Shown piece by piece: positions 53,485 to 63,416 of a stretch of 64,000 bases of DNA. The position numbers and the translations under genes are program-made. Position 1 is the stretch's first letter, and every line of letters starts with the position of its first letter. The stretch lies in contig QYZZ01000078.1 in NCBI GenBank assembly GCA_003838145.1, forward strand, positions 25,587 to 89,586, read 5' to 3'. The stretch is from Tindallia sp. MSAO_Bac2. GTDB lineage: Bacteria; Bacillota; Clostridia; Peptostreptococcales; Tindalliaceae. Under the pieces are notes generated by a model. The model ran no database searches and was not told the DNA's origin. It was given only the letters and a program-made list of their open reading frames with translations.

Positions 53485-53503
53485 TAATGATAATCAATAT
53501 CAA
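53485..53503. promoter_or_regulatory. Fur box
   Basis: TAATGATAATCAATATCAA. Confidence 0.7.
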
Positions 53504-53530: not shown

Positions 53531-54121
53531 ATGAAACAATGTTATTACCACGATCTAAGCGATCCGAAAGGATTTCAGTACTGGCTGACAGAGAAGCTGG
53601 CTCCTGTGCTTTTAGCTGCTAAGCCGGCTGAACTCCTTTGCTTTTCCGGTGACGATGAGGAGGGTGCCAGACGGGTTCTTATGATCCAGCAGTATGTCAG
53701 TAAAATTTCCTGTGTTGATTTTAAGAAATTTTCCCTGAAAAATGGAAGGCAAAAGATACTGTTTTTTCATCGTGGTGCCCTGGAAAAAACGCTCAGGGAC
53801 TCCCGGAACCATCGTTTTCTTCTGAAACAAGGATACCCGGAGACAGTAAACATGGAAGCATATCTGGATTTACTGGTTCTGAAGATTTCTACCGGTAAGA
53901 TACCTCACGAAATAGGCGTTTTTCTGGGATATCCATTGAAAGACGTGCTGGGTTACATTGGTCACCCTTCACTGAAGCTTACTAAAGTAAATGGCTGGAA
54001 AATTTATGGCAACCCAATGGTTTCTGACCGAACTTACGAAGCCATAGTAAAAGCGAAAGAAACCATTAGGCAGCAATTGGCGAAACTGGATCCGGATCAG
54101 GTGATCAGTCAGTTTTGCTGA
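53531..54121 (+). CDS. DUF3793 family protein
   Basis: LAPVLLAAKPAELL, IPHEIGVFLGYPLKDV, GWKIY. Confidence 0.88.
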   Translation: MKQCYYHDLSDPKGFQYWLTEKLAPVLLAAKPAELLCFSGDDEEGARRVLMIQQYVSKISCVDFKKFSLKNGRQKILFFHRGALEKTLRDSRNHRFLLKQGYPETVNMEAYLDLLVLKISTGKIPHEIGVFLGYPLKDVLGYIGHPSLKLTKVNGWKIYGNPMVSDRTYEAIVKAKETIRQQLAKLDPDQVISQFC

Positions 54122-54258: not shown

Positions 54259-54320
54259 TTGACATTCAATTAATAAAATGCTATTATAATTAAGAAGATG
54301 CTTAAATAGAATAGCATTTT
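54259..54320 (+). promoter_or_regulatory. sigmaA promoter with nested palindromic operator (ArsR-type candidate)
   Basis: TTGACA-N17-TATTAT; TTAAG-N6-CTTAA inside AAAATGCTATT/AATAGCATTTT. Confidence 0.6.
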
Positions 54321-54407
54321 CTATTGGAAAAAAACAGATATGTGGCTTTCGGCTGCCATTGTTTCATTACTAAGACGCTTTGCGTCTTTGACCGGGAGGG
54401 AATATGA

Positions 54408-54548
54408 ATGAGTGAAGCAAAATGCGAGCACCCGGAAAGACTAAAAGGAAAAAAACCAGGTGAGTGCAGTGAAAAGCAGAAAGAAGTTTGTCACGGCCAT
54501 GAATCCAAGCAAGATCAACACAGCTGCGAAGGAGAACAGACAAAATAA
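54408..54548 (+). CDS. Small Cys/His-rich peptide, 46 aa
   Basis: GGGAGGG RBS; MSEAKCEHPERLKGKKPGECSEKQKEVCHGHESKQDQHSCEGEQTK. Confidence 0.7.
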   Translation: MSEAKCEHPERLKGKKPGECSEKQKEVCHGHESKQDQHSCEGEQTK

Positions 54549-54606
54549 AAATCAGCCAAAACCGTCTGGTCTCGGATCAGACGGTTTTGGTATGGGAGGT
54601 GAGCCG

Positions 54607-54975
54607 GTGGAAAAGCTGGTAAATCGTCTGCGAGCTCTGGCGGATGAAAATCGACTAAAAATCATTGTATTATTGCTGGAAAAAGATTATTGTGTAGGGG
54701 CTCTTTCGAAAAATCTGGGTATATCCAAAGCTGCTGTTTCTCAGCACATGAAAATCTTACGGGAAAATGGGATTGTAAAAGGAGAAAAGAGAGGATATTT
54801 TACCCACTATGAAGTTCAAAAACATCAGATAAAGGGAATCTCTGAGGAGCTGGAGGAAATATCCCGGCGTGAGTTTAAGAAGGACAGGCTGGTTCATTCC
54901 TGCCAGAAAAATGGAGACTGTCATGAAGCAAAATCTGGGGAAGATGGAAAAGAAAATAAGGGTGAAAGCATATGA
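54607..54975 (+). CDS. ArsR/SmtB family regulator
   Basis: ALADENRLKII, CVGALS, SKAAVSQHMKILRENG; GTG after GGGAGG; C-terminal HSC..CH. Confidence 0.9.
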   Translation: MEKLVNRLRALADENRLKIIVLLLEKDYCVGALSKNLGISKAAVSQHMKILRENGIVKGEKRGYFTHYEVQKHQIKGISEELEEISRREFKKDRLVHSCQKNGDCHEAKSGEDGKENKGESI

Positions 54976-55925
54976 AGGCTATAAAGGTACAGGCATTATC
55001 TAAAAAATATGGCGAAAAAGAAGCGATAAAAGGCATTGACTTCATGGTGGAAGATGGAGAAATCTTTGGATTTCTGGGTCCTAATGGAGCCGGAAAAACC
55101 AGTACCATCAATATGCTCATTGGTTTATTGAAATCAACAAGTGGGACTATAGAGATACTTGGCAGGAATCTGGAAACACAAAAAGAAGCGATTCAGGCAG
55201 AAATCGGTGTAGTTCCGGATGAAAGCAATTTATACCCGGAAATGAGCGGAATTGACAACCTAACCTTTTGTGGCAGTCTTTACGGAATGAGAAAGCATGA
55301 CCGGGAAAAGAGAGCCCTGGAACTGCTGAAGATATTTCAATTAGAAGATGTGAAACATAAAGCCTTTAAGGCTTACTCCAGAGGAATGAAACGAAAGCTG
55401 ACCATCGCAGCAGCCATGATGCACCAGCCTAAAATATTATTTCTCGATGAGCCAACTTCAGGAATTGATGTGGCCAGTGCCCGGCAAATCCGAAAAATGA
55501 TAGAAGATTTGCATCAAAAGGGAACCACTATTTTTTTGACAACTCATTATCTTGAAGAGGCGGAAAGGCTTTGTCAACGCATTGCTTTTATTGTCGATGG
55601 AAAAATTGTGAAAACCGGCAGCGTAGAAACCCTGAAAGCTTCTTTGCATGATCAGTCAGGACTCCTGTTAAAGCTGGATCAGAATATGGCAAATCTTAAA
55701 CAATCACTGCAGGAAGAGCTAAAACTGACGAAAGTAGAAGAAATAAACGAAAGATCACTGAAGATCGTCTGGCCGCCGGATCAGGAGCTTACGCCTCTGT
55801 TTACTTTTTTTCGGCAAAAAGAGGTTCACATCCTCGAAGCTAAAAGAATGGAACCAACCATGGAAGAAGTGTTTGTTGCCATCACCGGGATTGAGCATTC
55901 GGAAGAAAAAGGAGGGGAATCATGA
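54972..55925 (+). CDS. ABC-2 type exporter ATP-binding subunit
   Basis: GPNGAGKT, YSRGM, LDEPT, TTHY. Confidence 0.95.
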   Translation: MKAIKVQALSKKYGEKEAIKGIDFMVEDGEIFGFLGPNGAGKTSTINMLIGLLKSTSGTIEILGRNLETQKEAIQAEIGVVPDESNLYPEMSGIDNLTFCGSLYGMRKHDREKRALELLKIFQLEDVKHKAFKAYSRGMKRKLTIAAAMMHQPKILFLDEPTSGIDVASARQIRKMIEDLHQKGTTIFLTTHYLEEAERLCQRIAFIVDGKIVKTGSVETLKASLHDQSGLLLKLDQNMANLKQSLQEELKLTKVEEINERSLKIVWPPDQELTPLFTFFRQKEVHILEAKRMEPTMEEVFVAITGIEHSEEKGGES

Positions 55926-56656
55926 ACAAAGGTATTGCGCTGCTAAGCATTTTGAATAAAGACATCAGAAATTACTACTTAAAACCGCCCAATATCAGTT
56001 GGGGTATGATTTTTCCTCTGGCCTGGACGCTAATGTTTGTATTGCGAAGCGAAACAGAAGTGGATCTTATCGAGATACTGCCTGGTGTCATGGCGCTGTC
56101 CATTCTTTTTGGCACCACATCCATGCTGGCGGTAACCATTACCTTCGAGAAAAAGCAAAAATCCTTTGAACGATTGATGTTAGCTCCTGTCAGTCTCTAT
56201 TCGCTGATGCTGGCTAAAACCGGAGGAGCCATTATTTTTGGGATACTGAATGCCATGGTACCCTTGCTTCTGGGAATTGCATTAACGGGTTTAAGGGCCA
56301 TAAACTGGCCGGTTTTAATGGGGGCAATTATACTGATTGCAGTAACCAGTACTTTTTTGGGGCTCATGATTGCAGTGGCAGCAAAAGAAGTGTTTGAAGC
56401 CCAAACCTTTTCCAATTTTTTTCGGTTTCCCATGATTTTTTTATGTGGCCTGTTTATACCCATTCAGGAATTGCCGGCATTGATTCAGCCTATATCCTAT
56501 GTGCTGCCGTTAACCTATGGAGTGGATCTGCTGAAAGTGGCCGTCGGGGCTGAAGGTATCCTGTCTGTATTTTTGAATTTTACTTTACTGCTGGTATTTT
56601 CTTTTGGTCTCTTTCGATATAGTATCCATAGAATGGAACGTAACTGGATGAACTGA
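55922..56656 (+). CDS. ABC-2 type exporter permease
   Basis: Six TM; FERLMLAP, LPLTYGVD. Confidence 0.9.
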   Translation: MNKGIALLSILNKDIRNYYLKPPNISWGMIFPLAWTLMFVLRSETEVDLIEILPGVMALSILFGTTSMLAVTITFEKKQKSFERLMLAPVSLYSLMLAKTGGAIIFGILNAMVPLLLGIALTGLRAINWPVLMGAIILIAVTSTFLGLMIAVAAKEVFEAQTFSNFFRFPMIFLCGLFIPIQELPALIQPISYVLPLTYGVDLLKVAVGAEGILSVFLNFTLLLVFSFGLFRYSIHRMERNWMN

Positions 56657-56665
56657 TGAAAAAAA

Positions 56666-56685
56666 AGAGGCAGCTTTCGCTGCCT
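56666..56685. terminator. Terminator between convergent operons
   Basis: GAGGCAGC-TTTC-GCTGCCTC. Confidence 0.7.
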
Positions 56686-56708
56686 CGAAGTTAAGAGAAA
56701 AACAGACC

Positions 56709-56987
56709 CTATTCGGCGCTGGAGTCAGCTAATGGCTGAGAATCTTCCAGGGCCATTTCTTTTTCAGCAATTAAATCTTCGATGGTTTCTTTTTTTAGCA
56801 TCAGTTCCTCCAGGGTCAGCTTGCTCAAATCTCCCTGTTCTGGCTGTGGGACGCGTATTCCATAATTGGCCAGCATCTCATCAACCTGCTCCTTGTTTTT
56901 CAGATATACATAGTATCCGGCGGCAGCGACACCCACCCCTACAACAAATCCTGTTACATGGTCTCTTGTGATTCCGAATTGATTCAT
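56709..56987 (-). CDS. Small GxxxG membrane protein (Fez accessory-like)
   Basis: GFVVGVGVAAAGYY helix plus acidic coiled tail. Confidence 0.7.
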   Translation of the reverse strand: MNQFGITRDHVTGFVVGVGVAAAGYYVYLKNKEQVDEMLANYGIRVPQPEQGDLSKLTLEELMLKKETIEDLIAEKEMALEDSQPLADSSAE

Positions 56988-57010
56988 TTACATTCACTCC
57001 TTTGTTTGTT

Positions 57011-57841
57011 CTAATGGTCAAGCCGCAGATAAATGCGACCTGAATGAGATTCCAGACTTTCCAGCAAATGGTGATGACGGGAAGCCATTTGAGATATGCT
57101 CTCCAGCAAGTCATTTTGCTGTGAGCGTGACTGCATTCCAATACTGGCTGATAATGCAGAAATCAATACGTTAAGGGGATTAGCGGGCTTGGACGGATCT
57201 CTTCGAATCACCACATCCAGATAATGATTGTCTGTTCCCTGGGAGCCAGGGTCAGCTCTTAGCAGGCATGCATTCCCGGAGTGCTCCACCAGGTGCCTGC
57301 CAAAGGTCACCAGCCAGGTAATGGCCGAAGCTCTGAGAGGATGCCCGGACATAAGAGATCCCAACAGGTAAATAAGTGAGAAAACTTCCGGGTGATACTC
57401 TTGGTTTTCCTGCCATTCCTGCCAGGCGTGATCCACAACAGCTAAGGCTGTCAGCCCGCCGGCGCCGTTGACCAAAGCTTTGTGGAAAGGGCTGGTTTTC
57501 ACTGCGTTGGTTAGAGCCGCCATCACAATGGATCCGGCAGCACTGTAAGCCATTAATCCGGGAGGATGGGTGGAATCGGGTCTTGATATTCGTACAAAGG
57601 ATTGCTGATAATCCAGAGAAAGCCGCACGCCTACCCGAACCACAATTTCCACATCGCTTACCTCTGTTGGCTGATAATGAATCAGCAAGGAACGGGTTCG
57701 GGGCTGGAAAACAACAGACTCAATGCCATCGTGCTGTCGTACTGCTTCGGTAAAGGCCGGGGCGTCCGTTGGTGGTCGGAACAATCGCAGGCGCAGCCTT
57801 CCTGGCAGTTCATGCACAATGGAAATATCTACCGGTATCAT
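57011..57841 (-). CDS. HMA2-domain membrane protein (FezC-like)
   Basis: VHELPGRLRLR, RTRSLLIHY, central TMs. Confidence 0.75.
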   Translation of the reverse strand: MIPVDISIVHELPGRLRLRLFRPPTDAPAFTEAVRQHDGIESVVFQPRTRSLLIHYQPTEVSDVEIVVRVGVRLSLDYQQSFVRISRPDSTHPPGLMAYSAAGSIVMAALTNAVKTSPFHKALVNGAGGLTALAVVDHAWQEWQENQEYHPEVFSLIYLLGSLMSGHPLRASAITWLVTFGRHLVEHSGNACLLRADPGSQGTDNHYLDVVIRRDPSKPANPLNVLISALSASIGMQSRSQQNDLLESISQMASRHHHLLESLESHSGRIYLRLDH

Positions 57842-60063
57842 TCGAAAGTCCTCCTTTCAAAGTCGTGGATGAGCAATCGGCCGGAGTTCATAACCACTAA
57901 AATAGTGGAAGAGTTGTGCAGCACAGATCCCCATACCACCGGAAGCCATCCCATTGCTGAAAGAACGATTCCCAGGGCATTGAGACCAACAGCCATCCGG
58001 AAGTTATTGCGGACGGTTTCCATGGTTCTTCGGGACAGCTGAATTGCTGAGGGAATCAGCAACGGGTCATCATTGGTGATGGTTACATTGGAAGACTCAA
58101 TGGCTACATCTGTCCGGGTATTTCCAATGGCGATGCCTACATCGGCGTAAGCCAGCGCCGGAGCATCATTAATCCCGTCGCCAATCATGATAACTCTGGA
58201 ACCACTGCCTTGCATGGAAAGAAGCGTACGAACCTTATCTTCCGGCATGAGTTCTGCGCTGAAGTCATCCATATGCATGCGGCTGGCTACTTTTTCCGCC
58301 TGGAAAGCTATATCACCGGTTAACAGGCGAATATCATCGATGCCGAGATGTCTCAACCGGTTAAGGGATTTTTTCATATTTTCCTTCAGTGCATCATGAA
58401 CCCCGATAACACCTGCCAGTACCCCGTTTTGGGCGACATAAATAATCATTTCCCCTTTTTGCTCCAGGGAATGGATGACATTTTGCAGTTCGCTGACGTC
58501 AACTCCGTTTTCTTTCAGATATTTTCGGTTACCAACCAGTATTTCATATTCCTGGATGGTAGTACGTACTCCCCGACCTGTCACAACCTCTGTCATGCCG
58601 TGAGCCGGAATGGCAATCCCGTTTAAACGGGCATAATCCAGAATGGCGTGAGCCAGCGGGTGGGAAGAGTCTTCCTCGGCAGCGGAAGCCATCTGGATAA
58701 TATCCTTTTGGGCAAAGCCGGTGGTGGGATGAAGACTGATGACCCGTGGACGTCCTTCCGTAACGGTGCCGGTTTTATCTAAAATGAGGGAATCTGCTTC
58801 AGCCAGGGCTTCAACGTAATTTCCGCCTTTAATCAGTACGCCATTCCGGGCTGCGTTGTGTATGCAGGCGGAAAGTGCTGTAGCAGTAGACAGGCGAACA
58901 CCGCAGGAAAAGTCGATAATCATCATGCTGAGGGCGCGGTTGATGTTTCGGGTCAGGCCATAAATCAGAATAGCCAGGGCAAAATTCATGGGAATCAGAT
59001 GTGCGGAAAAACGGTCAGCGAAGGTCTGAATGGCTGCCTTGCGTCCGGCAGCGCTCTCAACCATATGGACGATCCGGGCTACGGTGGTGTCGTCTCCCAC
59101 CTGCTCAGCACGGATTCTCAGATTGCCTGATTTAATAAGGGTGCCGGCAAAAACCCGGTGGCCGGGCCGTTTCTCAGCCGGAAAAAATTCGCCGGTGATG
59201 GGCGATTCGTCCACAAATCCTTCTCCTTCCGCTATTTCTCCATCTGCCGCAATTTTATCTCCGGACTGGACACTGATGATATCCCCCGGCTGCAGCTCAC
59301 TACTTTTTTTCTTAACCAGAGTATTTTCAGCGGTTACAACAAACACCATTTCATCTCCGGCCTGCAGCATATCACCGATGGCTTTTCTGGTTTTTTCCAT
59401 GGTGTAGGCCGTCATAAATTCAGCGATGTCTGCCAGCAGAATGGTGACCAAAGCGGAAAGGGATCTTCCGCTTAATAAAGCAGTTAGGATGGCACTGGCG
59501 GTTAAGGTGTCTGCGTTGGGCCTCCTGGTAGTAGCCAAAGAGTGCCACCCACTTTTAAAGATGGGAACAGAAAGTCCCGCACTAATCAGTGCCGGTGGTG
59601 TGAAAAGGCGTCGGTGCCAATAGCGATGTCCCAGGGAAGCGGCTCCCATTCCCGGCAGACTTTTAAACATGCCAAAAGCTATCAGGGATATACCGGAAAC
59701 CAAAACACGCTTCAAAAGATGCTCCGCCGGCTCTTCCTGAAGACGCCGCTCATTAACCGTCAGCGTGTTGCTGGCTTCTCTCTCAGCCTGATAGGCCAGC
59801 AGGGAAAAGGCAGCCATCTGATCCTCCACATAAGTATAAAGATCCTGGCTGTCTAAAACCGTGTGGTCATAGATGATCAGCATACTACCGGTAATGGGCT
59901 GATAATCAACCTGATGAATGGCCTTATGAAGTTGCAGCGCTTCAATCATTTCATTTTCTACTGTTTTTAAAAACGTAAAGGATCGGGAACGAAGACGTAT
60001 GCGGCCAGGCAGCTGGTGAGCAATTTCCAGCCGCATCAGTTTCCTGTTTTTTCGTTTTATCAC
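57838..60063 (-). CDS. P1B-6-type heavy-metal ATPase (FezB-like)
   Basis: N-terminal HQLPGRIRLR; DFSCG instead of CPC; DKTGT; GDGINDAP; HNSST. Confidence 0.85.
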   Translation of the reverse strand: MIKRKNRKLMRLEIAHQLPGRIRLRSRSFTFLKTVENEMIEALQLHKAIHQVDYQPITGSMLIIYDHTVLDSQDLYTYVEDQMAAFSLLAYQAEREASNTLTVNERRLQEEPAEHLLKRVLVSGISLIAFGMFKSLPGMGAASLGHRYWHRRLFTPPALISAGLSVPIFKSGWHSLATTRRPNADTLTASAILTALLSGRSLSALVTILLADIAEFMTAYTMEKTRKAIGDMLQAGDEMVFVVTAENTLVKKKSSELQPGDIISVQSGDKIAADGEIAEGEGFVDESPITGEFFPAEKRPGHRVFAGTLIKSGNLRIRAEQVGDDTTVARIVHMVESAAGRKAAIQTFADRFSAHLIPMNFALAILIYGLTRNINRALSMMIIDFSCGVRLSTATALSACIHNAARNGVLIKGGNYVEALAEADSLILDKTGTVTEGRPRVISLHPTTGFAQKDIIQMASAAEEDSSHPLAHAILDYARLNGIAIPAHGMTEVVTGRGVRTTIQEYEILVGNRKYLKENGVDVSELQNVIHSLEQKGEMIIYVAQNGVLAGVIGVHDALKENMKKSLNRLRHLGIDDIRLLTGDIAFQAEKVASRMHMDDFSAELMPEDKVRTLLSMQGSGSRVIMIGDGINDAPALAYADVGIAIGNTRTDVAIESSNVTITNDDPLLIPSAIQLSRRTMETVRNNFRMAVGLNALGIVLSAMGWLPVVWGSVLHNSSTILVVMNSGRLLIHDFERRTFE

Positions 60064-60461
60064 CTGCGGTCATCCTTTCTGGATGGTGGTTCCGGGCACA
60101 GATGCTGCCGAACCAGCTGAATAAGATAAAGCCTTGCGGCGGCCGGCTCTTGTTGCCGGGAAATCTGCTTTATTTCCTGCCGGTGCTGTGTCAGGACTTT
60201 ACCGATATGTCTGAAAGTGGCAATGATTTCTTCTTCGCTGATGACAGAAGGATTATAATGGATCAGGGCATTGCCTGTTATATAAGAAAAAGAAAAATCA
60301 CGAATGCCATCAATCTGCCTTAGAAAATCCAGCTCACTGTCATCCGGCTTCCATTCCGCCGGGATTTTGGAGGCATGGGGAATATTGATCCGAAGTCTTC
60401 CCGGTATGGAATGAACCACCCGAAAACGCAACAGAATATTAAACAGTATTTCTTCAATCAA
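60060..60461 (-). CDS. HMA2-domain protein
   Basis: VVHSIPGRLRI, TGNALIHY; TTG start after AAGGAG (track start 60575 overlaps upstream gene). Confidence 0.75.
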   Translation of the reverse strand: MIEEILFNILLRFRVVHSIPGRLRINIPHASKIPAEWKPDDSELDFLRQIDGIRDFSFSYITGNALIHYNPSVISEEEIIATFRHIGKVLTQHRQEIKQISRQQEPAAARLYLIQLVRQHLCPEPPSRKDDRR

Positions 60462-60493
60462 GTGTGAGACAACTCCTTTCAGCAGGGGAGGAT

Positions 60494-61057
60494 CTAACGA
60501 TGAAGACCCATCATGCGGTAAGCCCAGTAAAGTAATGTTATGGGGGCTGGTGTTCCAAGAGTACCCTTTTTCCAATACTCTTTTATAGCTACGGCTGTAA
60601 ATCCTCCGGCCAGCAAGGTGGGAACATCAACAGCTCCGTTGGTTTTCTGCATCAAGGCATGATTGGCGGCTCTGTGCATTAACCGGACTTCCTGGGAGAT
60701 TTTAGCAGAATCCTGAGCGGCTGAAAGATCACCATATCCCAGCAGTTGATAAATTGCTGCTGTCAGGATTTCTTCTTTCATTACCCGGTTATCGTAGGCA
60801 ATAAGCAGAGAACCGGTAGTCTGGTTAACAGAAACGTGGCGGATACCCTGCACCTGCTGTAAGCGCTCTGTCAGCACTTTACCTGACTGAGGATGGGCAA
60901 ACTTGCTGTGGTAAAGACGGATGCGGCCTGGAATGGCGTGAGAAATCTGCAGCTGCTTTTCAGCGATCCCAAGGGTATAGGAACGACTTTTCTGTTTTTT
61001 GCTTTTTGTAAATAAGGAACTTAATAAAATGCCTGCTATAATATGCACGGCATACAA
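60494..61057 (-). CDS. HMA2-domain protein with C-terminal TM
   Basis: SHAIPGRIRL, TTGSLLIAY, TLLYWAY; true start may be GTG 61048. Confidence 0.78.
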   Translation of the reverse strand: MYAVHIIAGILLSSLFTKSKKQKSRSYTLGIAEKQLQISHAIPGRIRLYHSKFAHPQSGKVLTERLQQVQGIRHVSVNQTTGSLLIAYDNRVMKEEILTAAIYQLLGYGDLSAAQDSAKISQEVRLMHRAANHALMQKTNGAVDVPTLLAGGFTAVAIKEYWKKGTLGTPAPITLLYWAYRMMGLHR

Positions 61058-61117
61058 CTCCTTTCCGGATTTCCATCCATCGTCATCTTTCTCCTAAGTA
61101 TAGCATAAGGCAGAATG

Positions 61118-61135
61118 AATGAGAAGCATTATCAT
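61118..61135. promoter_or_regulatory. Fur box upstream of fez-like operon
   Basis: AATGAGAAGCATTATCAT. Confidence 0.65.
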
Positions 61136-61252: not shown

Positions 61253-61744
61253 ATGCCTATAAAAGAAAATAGTCAGGATCATTTGAGATCTGAAGCGGAA
61301 AAAATGATGGAATTGTTAAACCTGTTAACCTTATTTACCAGAAAAACCTTATTGGAATGGCTGCCAGCGGTGACGGAAGCTTTTGGCATTAGTGAAGAAC
61401 GGTTCATGGTGTTATATGAACTGGAGCTGCAACCCAATATCAGTTTGAAAGACCTGGCGAGAAACTTGATGGTATCCTCCTCCAGCTTATCCATTATGAT
61501 CAACTCGCTGGTGGAGCAGGAGATGGTGGAGCGTGTTACAGACCCGAAAGACAGACGAAGGGTACTGCTAAAACTGAGTCGGCAAGGCGAAGAGATCCTT
61601 AGCAAGGCCAATGAACATTTAATTCGGTCTTTTCAGGATTACCTGTGCCGGCTGTCGGAAGAAAGCCGAAGAGATCTGGAAAAAACCGGTGATGCCATGA
61701 CGGCTGTTATAAAACAGGTTATGAAAGAATCCATGAAAGGGTAA
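61253..61744 (+). CDS. MarR family regulator
   Basis: SSLSIMINSLVEQEMVER..DPKDRR. Confidence 0.9.
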   Translation: MPIKENSQDHLRSEAEKMMELLNLLTLFTRKTLLEWLPAVTEAFGISEERFMVLYELELQPNISLKDLARNLMVSSSSLSIMINSLVEQEMVERVTDPKDRRRVLLKLSRQGEEILSKANEHLIRSFQDYLCRLSEESRRDLEKTGDAMTAVIKQVMKESMKG

Positions 61745-61756
61745 GGTGTAAAAGGT

Positions 61757-63130
61757 ATGAACAGGGAATCATTTTTAACAGAGCCACTGGGAAAGCTGAT
61801 TGGAAAAAATGCAGCACCGGCAGTGGCATCCATGCTGTTTATGGCATTGTATCAAATCATTGATGGAATTATGGTGGGTAGACGGTTGGGGCCGGAAGCA
61901 CTGGCATCGGTAAACTTGCTGTATCCGGTTATAGCGCTGCTGGTGGGTCTGGCAGTGATGCTGGGTGTCGGAGGAAATGCCCGTATTGCAATACTACTGG
62001 GTGAGGGGAATTCTCATCGGGCATCCCGGGTATTGGGGTTAATATTGATTCTGGGCTTTGGGCTGGGAATAGTGGGCAGCCTTTTATCAGTTCTTTTAAT
62101 GCCCAACATCCTCAGTTTTCTTGGTGCCTCAGGAGAGCTGGGCGCACAGGCAGGCCAATACCTGAGGGGAATGTCACCCTACTTTGCTTTCATGATTGCC
62201 ATTTTCATTCTTGAGCAATCCCTTCGAAATGATGGACAGCCAAATCTGGCCAGTGGTGTTATGGCTGCAGCTGCAGTGCTGAATATTGCCTTGGACTATC
62301 TTTTTTTATATGTACTGGATTTTGGGATCAGAGGAGCAGGAATGGCCACCGGGATTTCCCAAAGTCTTGGAGCCCTGGTTTTCATCCTGTACTTTATCGG
62401 GAAAACCAGTCGGAAGGAAGAAGGTCTGTGTTTTGCAAAACCGGATGGGAGTCTTCGAACCGGAAAAACCATTGTCATCAACGGGGCTTCGGAATTTTTT
62501 AACAGTCTGGCCATGGGCGTGGTGACCTTTCTCATTAACAGAAGTATTTTGATGTATATTGGTGGACTGGGTGTAGCCGCGTTTACTTTGGTGCAGTATG
62601 TAATGGTAATGGGTGTAATGATAATAACCGGCATTGGAAACGGGACTCAGCCGGTTTTCAGCTACAACCACGGTGCCGGATTTTCAGATCGTGTCCAGGG
62701 GACTCTGTGGCGAACAATCATGATTGGAACAGCAATCGGAGGAATCTTCTTTGTTCTGATGTCCTGGCAAATGAAGCCCATTGCAGAACTATTTCTGCCG
62801 GGGCAGCCCGAGGCTGTAGCCCTGACTCTGGAAGCAGCCAGCTTCCTGCGATGGACTATGTGGTTTATGCCAACGGCCATTCTGGGGTCCATTTACTTTA
62901 CGGCACTGGAACAGGCCTCCAAGTCTCTGGCAATAGCTATTTCCAAAGGATTGTTGCTGCCAGTCATGGGATTGTTGCTTTTTCCTTTATGGCTGGGAGC
63001 AGACGGTATTTGGGTGGCACTGGTGGCAACGGATATTTTGGCGGTCATTGTAGTGGCCATCTGTTACGGTTTTCAGATGGCAGATAACAAGGAAAAAACA
63101 AACCTGAACTTATCCAAAACCATACTTTAG
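61757..63130 (+). CDS. MATE family efflux transporter
   Basis: YQIIDGIMVG, LNIALDYLF, GAGMAT, SYNHGA. Confidence 0.92.
   Translation: MNRESFLTEPLGKLIGKNAAPAVASMLFMALYQIIDGIMVGRRLGPEALASVNLLYPVIALLVGLAVMLGVGGNARIAILLGEGNSHRASRVLGLILILGFGLGIVGSLLSVLLMPNILSFLGASGELGAQAGQYLRGMSPYFAFMIAIFILEQSLRNDGQPNLASGVMAAAAVLNIALDYLFLYVLDFGIRGAGMATGISQSLGALVFILYFIGKTSRKEEGLCFAKPDGSLRTGKTIVINGASEFFNSLAMGVVTFLINRSILMYIGGLGVAAFTLVQYVMVMGVMIITGIGNGTQPVFSYNHGAGFSDRVQGTLWRTIMIGTAIGGIFFVLMSWQMKPIAELFLPGQPEAVALTLEAASFLRWTMWFMPTAILGSIYFTALEQASKSLAIAISKGLLLPVMGLLLFPLWLGADGIWVALVATDILAVIVVAICYGFQMADNKEKTNLNLSKTIL

Positions 63131-63215: not shown

Positions 63216-63416
<201 letters not shown>

Follow-up and report, generated by a model that had tools for sequence, protein, structure and literature searches.

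A five-gene cassette on the minus strand

A single compact transcription unit was found on the minus strand at positions 56667-61134 of a 64,000-nucleotide stretch of DNA from Tindallia sp. MSAO_Bac2 (contig QYZZ01000078.1, positions 25,587 to 89,586), the whole of which is called the window here. Five co-directional genes, designated g1 to g5 in the direction of transcription, occupy 56709-61048 and include a P1B-type ATPase, g3. A first-pass annotation of the same DNA had described five close or overlapping minus-strand genes as an operon similar to fez, the gene cluster of ferrosomes. The layout was confirmed at these positions; how far the likeness to fez extends is considered below.

The first gene, g1 (60494-61048, minus strand), encodes a Cys-less HMA_2 protein of 184 amino acids with a GTG start, and g2 (60060-60461, minus strand) encodes an HMA_2 protein of 133 amino acids with a TTG start. 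The 741-amino-acid ATPase g3 (57838-60063, minus strand) has an N-terminal HMA_2 domain and belongs to a clade with the motifs D[YF]SCG and HNxxT. It is followed by g4 (57011-57841, minus strand), coding for a 276-amino-acid protein with an N-terminal HMA-like fold, four long helices and a C-terminal alpha/beta domain, and by g5 (56709-56987, minus strand), coding for a 92-amino-acid protein in which an N-terminal hydrophobic GxxxGxG helix precedes an acidic helix. The overlaps at g2/g3 and at g3/g4 are 4 nucleotides each, and the intergenic gaps are 32 nucleotides between g1 and g2 and 23 nucleotides between g4 and g5. A strong intrinsic terminator (56667-56686, minus strand; an 8-bp stem with six G-C pairs, followed by T8) closes the unit.

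The longest open reading frames (ORFs) of g1 and g2 extend to 61057 and 60575, respectively. Both starts were placed shorter because of the ribosome-binding sites and of the gene calls in a related locus, L115, in which the ATPase is 93% identical to g3. The TTG start of g2 is preceded by an AAAGGAG site, and the g2 orthologue in L115 is called at 133 amino acids. For g1, the start follows the corresponding gene call in L115.

The pump g3 belongs to a sister clade of FezB

In family profile searches, the g3 protein matched TIGR01525 at 537 bits. The DKTGT, TGE, HP and GDGINDAP motifs are all intact, and the ATPase is predicted from them to be catalytically intact. The N-terminus is an HMA_2 domain (PF19991; E 1.8e-12, 47.9 bits) with the motif HQLPGRIR and the R-rich string HQLPGRIRLRSR. 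As the first-pass annotation had noted, DFSC and HNxxT are present and CPC is absent: the fourth transmembrane helix (TM4) carries IIDFSCGVR, and TM6 carries HNSST (residues 716-720), in which H716, N717 and T720 are invariant among the 20 homologs aligned. The ligand set predicted for g3, namely Asp, Ser and Cys on TM4 and His, Asn and Thr on TM6, equals that of the ferrosome ATPase FezB. The sole change in the TM4/TM6 motifs between g3 and FezB is Ala to Gly. The earlier remark that the ATPase has TGEF rather than TGES is true; it is uninformative, as T-G-E is invariant and F follows it in the consensus of 20 aligned sequences of the SCG clade.

FezB was defined by Grant et al. (2020 preprint) by D[Y/F]SCA, HNxxT and clade membership. 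In Supplementary Table 1 of that work, a D[YF]SCG group is coloured apart from FezB (FCE7F1, 'related P1B-ATPase'), with entries from Clostridium, Fusobacterium, Desulfosporosinus, Tindallia magadiensis and others. The entry of Tindallia magadiensis Z-7934 is DFSCGVR / HNSST / HQLPGRMRLRSR. Its TM4 and TM6 strings are identical to those of g3, and its R-rich string is near-identical (HQLPGRIRLRSR in g3, HQLPGRMRLRSR in T. magadiensis). RecA of the source genome shares 95% identity with its T. californiensis counterpart, which marks the organism as related to Tindallia. Among the nearest homologs of g3 in a collection of 5.8 billion proteins, 120 of 120 carry D[YF]SCG.

A maximum-likelihood tree was built from 126 rows: the g3 protein, loci from named genomes and representatives at 50% identity. 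Its FezB-type rows were assigned from the motif and not from a protein name. The tree contains a D[YF]xC/HNxxT superclade, supported at 98 in the Shimodaira-Hasegawa-like approximate likelihood ratio test (SH-aLRT), which divides into two branches. The FezB-type branch (support 100) consists of 13 SCA-type proteins (support 98) and five degenerate relatives. The SCG branch (support 100, 33 rows) contains g3 together with the proteins of C. fallax, C. acetireducens and D. hippei, three species that Grant et al. list in the FCE7F1 group. When g3 was forced together with the 13 SCA-type rows, the tree became 320.9 log-likelihood units worse (p 1e-4 in the approximately unbiased (AU) test). CtpC-like (CPCA), FezH-like (CPCAT) and the remaining CPC/SPC-type pumps are more distant; CtpC-type pumps (CPCA / HNxS[ST], R-rich N-terminus) count among the closest of the other clades.

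These data indicate that g3 is not a FezB/P1B-6 ATPase as the ferrosome papers define it, because it has DFSCG instead of D[Y/F]SCA and is placed in a sister clade, which is well supported. The identification of the ATPase as FezB in the first-pass annotation is contradicted by this result. The comparison proposed there, a P1B ATPase phylogeny against FezB, kept g3 away from the Zn/Cd exporters, as had been anticipated, and placed it as sister to the FezB clade, not inside it. As a separate candidate, a Zn/Cd exporter identity was ruled out by motif and tree. No other HMA_2-bearing ATPase, and hence no FezB, was found in the source genome or in five named cassette-bearing genomes.

Partner proteins of the pump

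The HxxPGRxR motif is present in all four larger proteins, g1 to g4, so the four HMA2-like proteins named in the first-pass annotation were recovered, one of them with a qualification: g4 falls below the Pfam HMA_2 (PF19991) gathering cut-off of 30 bits, and its HMA fold is predicted. The g1 protein matches PF19991 at E 1.5e-43 and 148.8 bits over model positions 5-154 of 154 and has the motif HAIPGRIRL. The g2 protein (E 2e-7, 31.5 bits; HSIPGRLRI) has no predicted membrane helix. The g4 protein (HELPGRLRL) reaches E 5e-4 and 20.4 bits.

AlphaFold models of g1 and g4, built with family alignments, reached good confidence. In the g1 model (predicted local distance difference test (pLDDT) score 82.8), a short N-terminal hydrophobic helix is followed by an HMA fold and three long helices, and the best Foldseek matches are the HMA domains of ATP7B, MerP and CsoZ. 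The g4 model (pLDDT 85.6) has an N-terminal HMA fold, which Foldseek likewise matches to HMA domains, and four long helices within residues 96-185. Both models show the beta-alpha-beta-beta-alpha-beta arrangement of the HMA fold, with domains of ATP7B, CopZ, MerP and CsoZ as the best solved matches. The invariant residues of g4 are H10, R15, R17, H138, P151-E152, T175-W176 and F180-x-R182-H183. The CxxC metal site is absent from g1 and g4, and g1 has no cysteine and g4 a single one. Because CxxC is absent, the two proteins look, on these models, like docking or regulatory modules, not like thiol metallochaperones.

The last gene was described in the first-pass annotation as a GxxxG peptide, and this holds for the 92-amino-acid g5. 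Its hydrophobic N-terminus is GFVVGVGVAAAG. G13, G17 and G19 (G13xxxG17xG19) are invariant in 17 homologs, and the acidic helix KExIEDLIAE is invariant or nearly so. No Pfam family was matched by g5, and 0 of the 17 homologs matched DUF1490 (PF07371) or DUF6110 (PF19605), even at E up to 10.

For comparison, 44 loci of FezB (SCA) type were collected from genomes and metagenomes. Profile hidden Markov models (HMMs) of g1/g2 matched HMA_2 proteins in a few of these loci. A small GxxxG protein lies directly upstream of FezB in gut Firmicutes (for example, the 94-amino-acid upstream ORF of L133, from the set L120-L167); it is a DUF6110 protein in 14 of 16 cases, and one matches DUF1490, the PacL family, as well. 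A profile-profile comparison of the g5 family with the FezA-like/DUF6110 proteins was co-linear and weak (probability 16%, E 1.6e-3). The cassette partners are of the same kinds as the FezA/FezC-type partners, and by profile they are analogous rather than demonstrably orthologous, because the g4 and g5 HMMs match none of the 44 FezB loci. From the shared family assignments, the FezA-type ferrosome protein and the mycobacterial scaffold PacL appear to form one superfamily.

Conservation and distribution of the cassette

A scan of one genome per species gave 449 related loci; the counts of gene order, phyla and neighbours given here use the best 80. Gene order was determined by a phmmer search with g1-g5. 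The order g1-g2-g3-g4-g5 on one strand was found in 49 of the 80 loci, and the order g1-g3-g4-g5, without g2, in 22, mostly in Planctomycetes; the remaining nine are interrupted by contig ends. Homologs of g4 and g5 are present in 78 and 73 of the 80 loci, respectively. The five genes behave as a co-inherited cassette of fixed architecture. The expanded set of HMA2 proteins, which the first-pass annotation had attributed to this organism, is therefore not a peculiarity of it.

The cassette loci represent at least 10 phyla. Planctomycetota (20), Bacillota (18), Thermodesulfobacteriota (15), Bacteroidota (14) and Pseudomonadota (2) are followed by six further phyla (Calditrichota, Armatimonadota, Myxococcota, Ignavibacteriota, Chloroflexota and others), with one locus each or unassigned. 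Cultured, non-pathogenic anaerobes that carry the cassette include Tindallia, Desulfosporosinus, Acetoanaerobium and Clostridium acetireducens. Among other species of the genus, the cassette is present in two of three (92-93% identity). It was found in none of five genomes of the sister genus and in two of 22 genomes elsewhere in the order, and the best other match in a 400-genome sample of the phylum has 45% identity. The G+C fraction is 0.48-0.51 in the cassette, compared with 0.41-0.42 in the flanks and 0.423 in the genome. The patchy distribution, the 45% best other match in the phylum and the raised G+C point to probable lateral spread of the cassette.

Promoter and Fur-like box

The Fur-like box that had been noted upstream of the operon was confirmed. 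The box, TGATAATGCTTCTCA, lies at 61120-61134 on the minus strand and matches the Firmicute Fur consensus TGATAATNATTATCA at 13 of 15 positions; its left half-site, TGATAAT, is perfect. A consensus scan predicted a sigma-70 promoter at 61097-61125 (minus strand), with a -35 element TTCTCA at 61125-61120, a 17-nucleotide spacer and a TG-extended -10 element TATACT at 61102-61097. The predicted -35 is inside the Fur-like box. The box and -10 stretch aligns gap-free with L115, with the -10 conserved, and large indels break the alignment further upstream.

Fur-like sites of this quality are uncommon, not rare, in the genome. Two perfect, one one-mismatch and 49 two-mismatch sites were counted in the 2.48-Mb source genome, 52 in all or about one per 48 kb, and the chance of such a match in a 200-bp promoter is roughly 0.5-2%. 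Desulfosporosinus hippei and Clostridium acetireducens have perfect 15/15 boxes ahead of the cassette. Three further loci have near-perfect boxes with one or two mismatches, and 0-3 of 200 shuffles reach the observed match. Two Fur-family proteins are encoded in the source genome. In C. difficile, a fur mutant produces ferrosomes constitutively. From these sequence matches, Fur control of the cassette in this organism is plausible and is regarded as putative.

No convincing FeoB match was found in the genome, which is 97.5% complete; the best FeoB_N matches are generic GTPases (E 1e-13 or weaker). The Fur motif is accordingly uncalibrated on a feo promoter. No Rfam family was above threshold in the window. 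Similarly, no metal riboswitch was found among 11 Firmicute loci, which gave four Rfam matches (a SAM riboswitch, a T-box, a c-di-GMP riboswitch and a group II intron).

The best Fur sites of the genome precede a DUF2325 gene, a small ORF and a DUF3793 gene within the window. The two perfect boxes lie before the DUF2325 gene (C85:6288-6620) and the 90-amino-acid ORF (C116:68391-68663). The one-mismatch box, TGATAATCAATATCA, is at window positions 53488-53502, 29 nucleotides upstream of the DUF3793 gene at 53531-54121. A DUF3793 gene, confirmed by Pfam, adjoins the SCG cassette in L048, and ORFs resembling DUF3793/DUF2325, judged by eye, flank FezB in L129, L131 and L153. From their positions, DUF3793 and DUF2325 genes may belong to the core of the Fur regulon in Clostridia or be associated with ferrosomes there, and the association fits an iron regulon.

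Neighbouring genes and regulators

No conserved genes were found downstream of the cassette, and the flanks vary. Of 100 upstream ORFs, 14 encode a DtxR-family regulator, which is thereby the commonest neighbour. In the Planctomycete four-gene loci (L051, L053-L056, L060 and L065), a divergent upstream DtxR-family regulator of 222-230 amino acids carries a C-terminal FeoA/SH3 domain. The Desulfobulbales-type DtxR-family regulator has Asn and His at the metal-ligand positions. Genes for FeoA/B, Nramp, ZnuA/ABC-3 and TonB receptors are sporadic around the related loci. Three Syntrophobacteraceae-type loci have a FezH-like R-rich ATPase (LASPCAT / HIFHT) next to the cassette on its downstream side (L068:13161-15395, L074:11960-14191 and L076:6109-8409). 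In one metagenome-assembled genome from Bacillota, a CtpC-like pump (ACPCAA / HNLST) was seen upstream of the cassette (L046:4210-6477).

In the window, a MarR-family regulator gene (61253-61744) and a MatE efflux gene, together at 61253-63130 on the plus strand, diverge from the cassette, and a 56-amino-acid 2x[4Fe-4S] ferredoxin is encoded at 63216-63386 on the minus strand. MarR, MatE and ferredoxin genes flank the cassette in L115 too, which indicates that the arrangement is stable within the genus. Directly past the cassette terminator, an ArsR-family regulator gene and an ABC-2 exporter (ATPase and permease) lie on the opposite strand at 54259-56656 (plus strand). By its gene content, the ArsR/ABC-2 unit is a probable second metal-related unit in the neighbourhood.

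Proposed function and alternative explanations

The best reading of the cassette, to which we give a probability of roughly 45%, is a ferrosome-like system for Fe(II)/Mn(II) sequestration. The main ground for ranking storage above efflux is the Fur box over the -35, from which expression under iron starvation is predicted. In the proposed mechanism, the five genes would be expressed as one operon, and the products would form a membrane assembly around the P1B ATPase g3. This pump would remove a divalent metal from the cytosol; Fe(II) is the most likely substrate, and Mn(II) is a possible one. In analogy to FezB, its sister group, the pump may deliver the metal into small membrane-bounded, ferrosome-like storage compartments. 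The g5 protein may cluster or shape the membrane via its GxxxG helix, in analogy to the FezA/PacL-type partners, and g1, g2 and g4 probably dock onto the pump or regulate it via the HxxPGRxR strand and the Cys-less HMA_2 fold that they share with its N-terminus, and would not bind metal through thiols. Fe-Fur probably represses the operon at the -35 box, and expression would then be on in iron starvation, like that of C. difficile fez. The data show the gene content, motifs, folds, clade placement and conservation of the cassette; the metal, the partner roles, the Fur control and a transport that ends in a compartment, not outside the cell membrane, are inferred from them.

Several observations weigh against ferrosome-like storage of iron. 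The g4 and g5 family HMMs gave 0 matches in the 44 FezB loci, and g5 is not a member of DUF6110, the family of the FezA-like proteins at gut-Firmicute FezB. The Fur-like box has two mismatches here and three at the orthologous site in L115 (TGAAAATCCTTCTCA), and most related loci have no Fur box. The Planctomycete DtxR-family regulators have Asn/Glu at the ligand positions, with 5zr4 as the best solved match, and are MntR-like. We take 5zr4 to be MntR of M. tuberculosis, and the Asn/Glu positions presumably correspond to Met10/Cys102 of the Fe sensors DtxR/IdeR, with Asn/Glu as in MntR-type Mn sensors. Nramp and ZnuA/ABC-3 genes adjoin some loci as well. The regulatory context is mixed, and Fe(II) and Mn(II) are both possible substrates.

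Membership in the FezB family itself is a very improbable explanation. In that case, g3 would be a divergent FezB and the operon a true fez operon that makes ordinary ferrosomes. HNxxT, the R-rich N-terminus, the D-F-S-C core, the GxxxG partner and the Fur-like box do match the published descriptions of fez, but D[Y/F]SCA is replaced by SCG in 120 of 120 nearest homologs, the SCG proteins form a separate clade (SH-aLRT 100), and the constrained tree, 320.9 log-likelihood units below the unconstrained one, is rejected (AU p 1e-4). The T. magadiensis orthologue had also been placed outside the FezB group by Grant et al., and the g4 and g5 families are absent from the FezB loci. A true fez operon is rejected as family membership, and its functional part survives in the storage reading. 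A more serious competitor, somewhat doubtful in our judgement, is an efflux platform in the cytoplasmic membrane that resembles the PacL-CtpC 'effluxosome' and forms no organelle. The ATPase would rid the cell of surplus Mn(II), Zn(II) or Fe(II), or would provide secreted proteins with metal; g5 would be a PacL-like single-helix scaffold by which the pump is stabilised and clustered, and the HMA_2 proteins would regulate the pump. CtpC-type pumps are indeed among the nearest other clades, and g5 has the same layout as PacL, with a single TM helix, a glycine motif and an acidic region. The small proteins at gut-Firmicute FezB are DUF6110, 'PacL-like' proteins, which implies that storage and efflux systems share parts, and MntR-like regulators, Nramp and MntABC-like genes adjoin the cassette in several lineages. 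However, the placement of the Fur box over the -35 predicts induction when iron is scarce, and an exporter for iron detoxification would need the reverse. TM4 reads DFSCG, not CPC, g5 matches neither DUF1490 nor DUF6110, the nearest characterised relative in the tree is FezB, not CtpC, and the PacL systems known so far consist of two genes, against five in the cassette.

It is possible, although we would not favour it, that the Fur-like box arose by chance or serves a different regulator as its operator, for instance the divergent MarR (61253-61744), and that the cassette is not iron-regulated in this organism. The 52 genomic matches of equal or better quality, the three mismatches in L115, the lack of a box in most relatives and the conservation of the MarR-MatE pair beside the cassette in L115 speak for this possibility. 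On the other side, the box lies exactly over the predicted -35, the left half-site is perfect, two other Firmicute cassettes have full 15/15 boxes of the same position class, and the box and -10 are gap-free between the window and L115 while large indels break the upstream alignment.

As a broader proposal, the SCG cassette may build a second, genetically distinct, lipid-bounded organelle for the storage of Fe(II), or perhaps of Mn(II), with its own g4/g5 scaffolds and with lateral spread in at least 10 phyla. This proposal is tentative. If it is true, ferrosomes in their present definition would be only one branch of a wider organelle family that touches the mycobacterial effluxosomes. Ferrosomes are bacterial organelles of recent discovery, and the question of ferrosome-like structures for other metals is raised explicitly in a 2026 review. 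The cassette is a sharply defined candidate, with five genes in fixed order, cultured anaerobic hosts and a size small enough for transfer to E. coli, into which the Shewanella fez operon has already been moved. If the sister clade makes compartments, the organelle family and its phyletic range would be widened; if it forms an efflux platform, the cassette would mark the point of divergence of storage and efflux within one pump superclade.

Comparison with known systems

The g3 ATPase belongs to the FCE7F1 group of Grant et al. The clade of the cassette was catalogued in that work, in a table that gives ATPases and motifs; the five-gene context, the AU rejection, the regulator context and the g1/g4 folds were worked out here. 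No function or gene context for the FCE7F1 group was found in the preprint and its tables. Similarly, a literature search on members of the SCG clade, by locus tags and by 'ferrosome' with Fusobacterium or Clostridium species, found no paper.

The fez clusters compared were fezABC of Desulfovibrio magneticus, the six-gene operons of Shewanella putrefaciens and Rhodopseudomonas palustris, and fez of Clostridioides difficile. The claim of a fez-like operon stands in that the same classes of parts are present. These include a P1B ATPase with D[YF]SC on TM4, HNxxT on TM6 and an R-rich (HxxPGRxR) N-terminal HMA_2 domain, at least one stand-alone R-rich HMA-like protein, some with membrane helices, and a small hydrophobic GxxxG protein, here g5. 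The host names suggest anaerobic lineages from sediment or gut sources in both cases. Fur repression of C. difficile fez has a counterpart in the Fur-type box at the promoter here, and a FezH-like second pump occasionally adjoins, as in the large fez clusters. The claim fails in that the pump is not FezB/P1B-6: it has SCG where fez pumps have SCA on TM4, and it lies in a separate, well-supported sister clade, with inclusion in FezB rejected by the AU test. The fez clusters vary from two to ten genes, whereas the order of five or four genes is fixed here. The g4 and g5 families do not occur at the 44 FezB loci, and g5 is not DUF6110. The fez systems build ferrosomes; for the present cassette, such compartments are a proposal.

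The PacL-CtpC system of Mycobacterium tuberculosis (PacL1) is similar in its P1B-6-like pump, which has HNx[ST] and an R-rich, Cys-less N-terminal domain. This pump also relies on a small partner, PacL, in which a single TM helix with GxxG precedes a Glu/Ala-rich cytosolic region with an acidic helix; PacL proteins bind the N-terminal domain of the pump. In contrast to g3, CtpC has CPC on TM4. The PacL partner belongs to DUF1490/DUF6110, which g5 does not match, and the system is organised in two-gene units without stand-alone HMA_2 proteins. It exports zinc or manganese at the cell membrane. DUF6110 is termed 'PacL-like' in the 2026 review, and the DUF6110 identity of the gut-Firmicute FezA-like proteins joins the ferrosome and effluxosome literatures.

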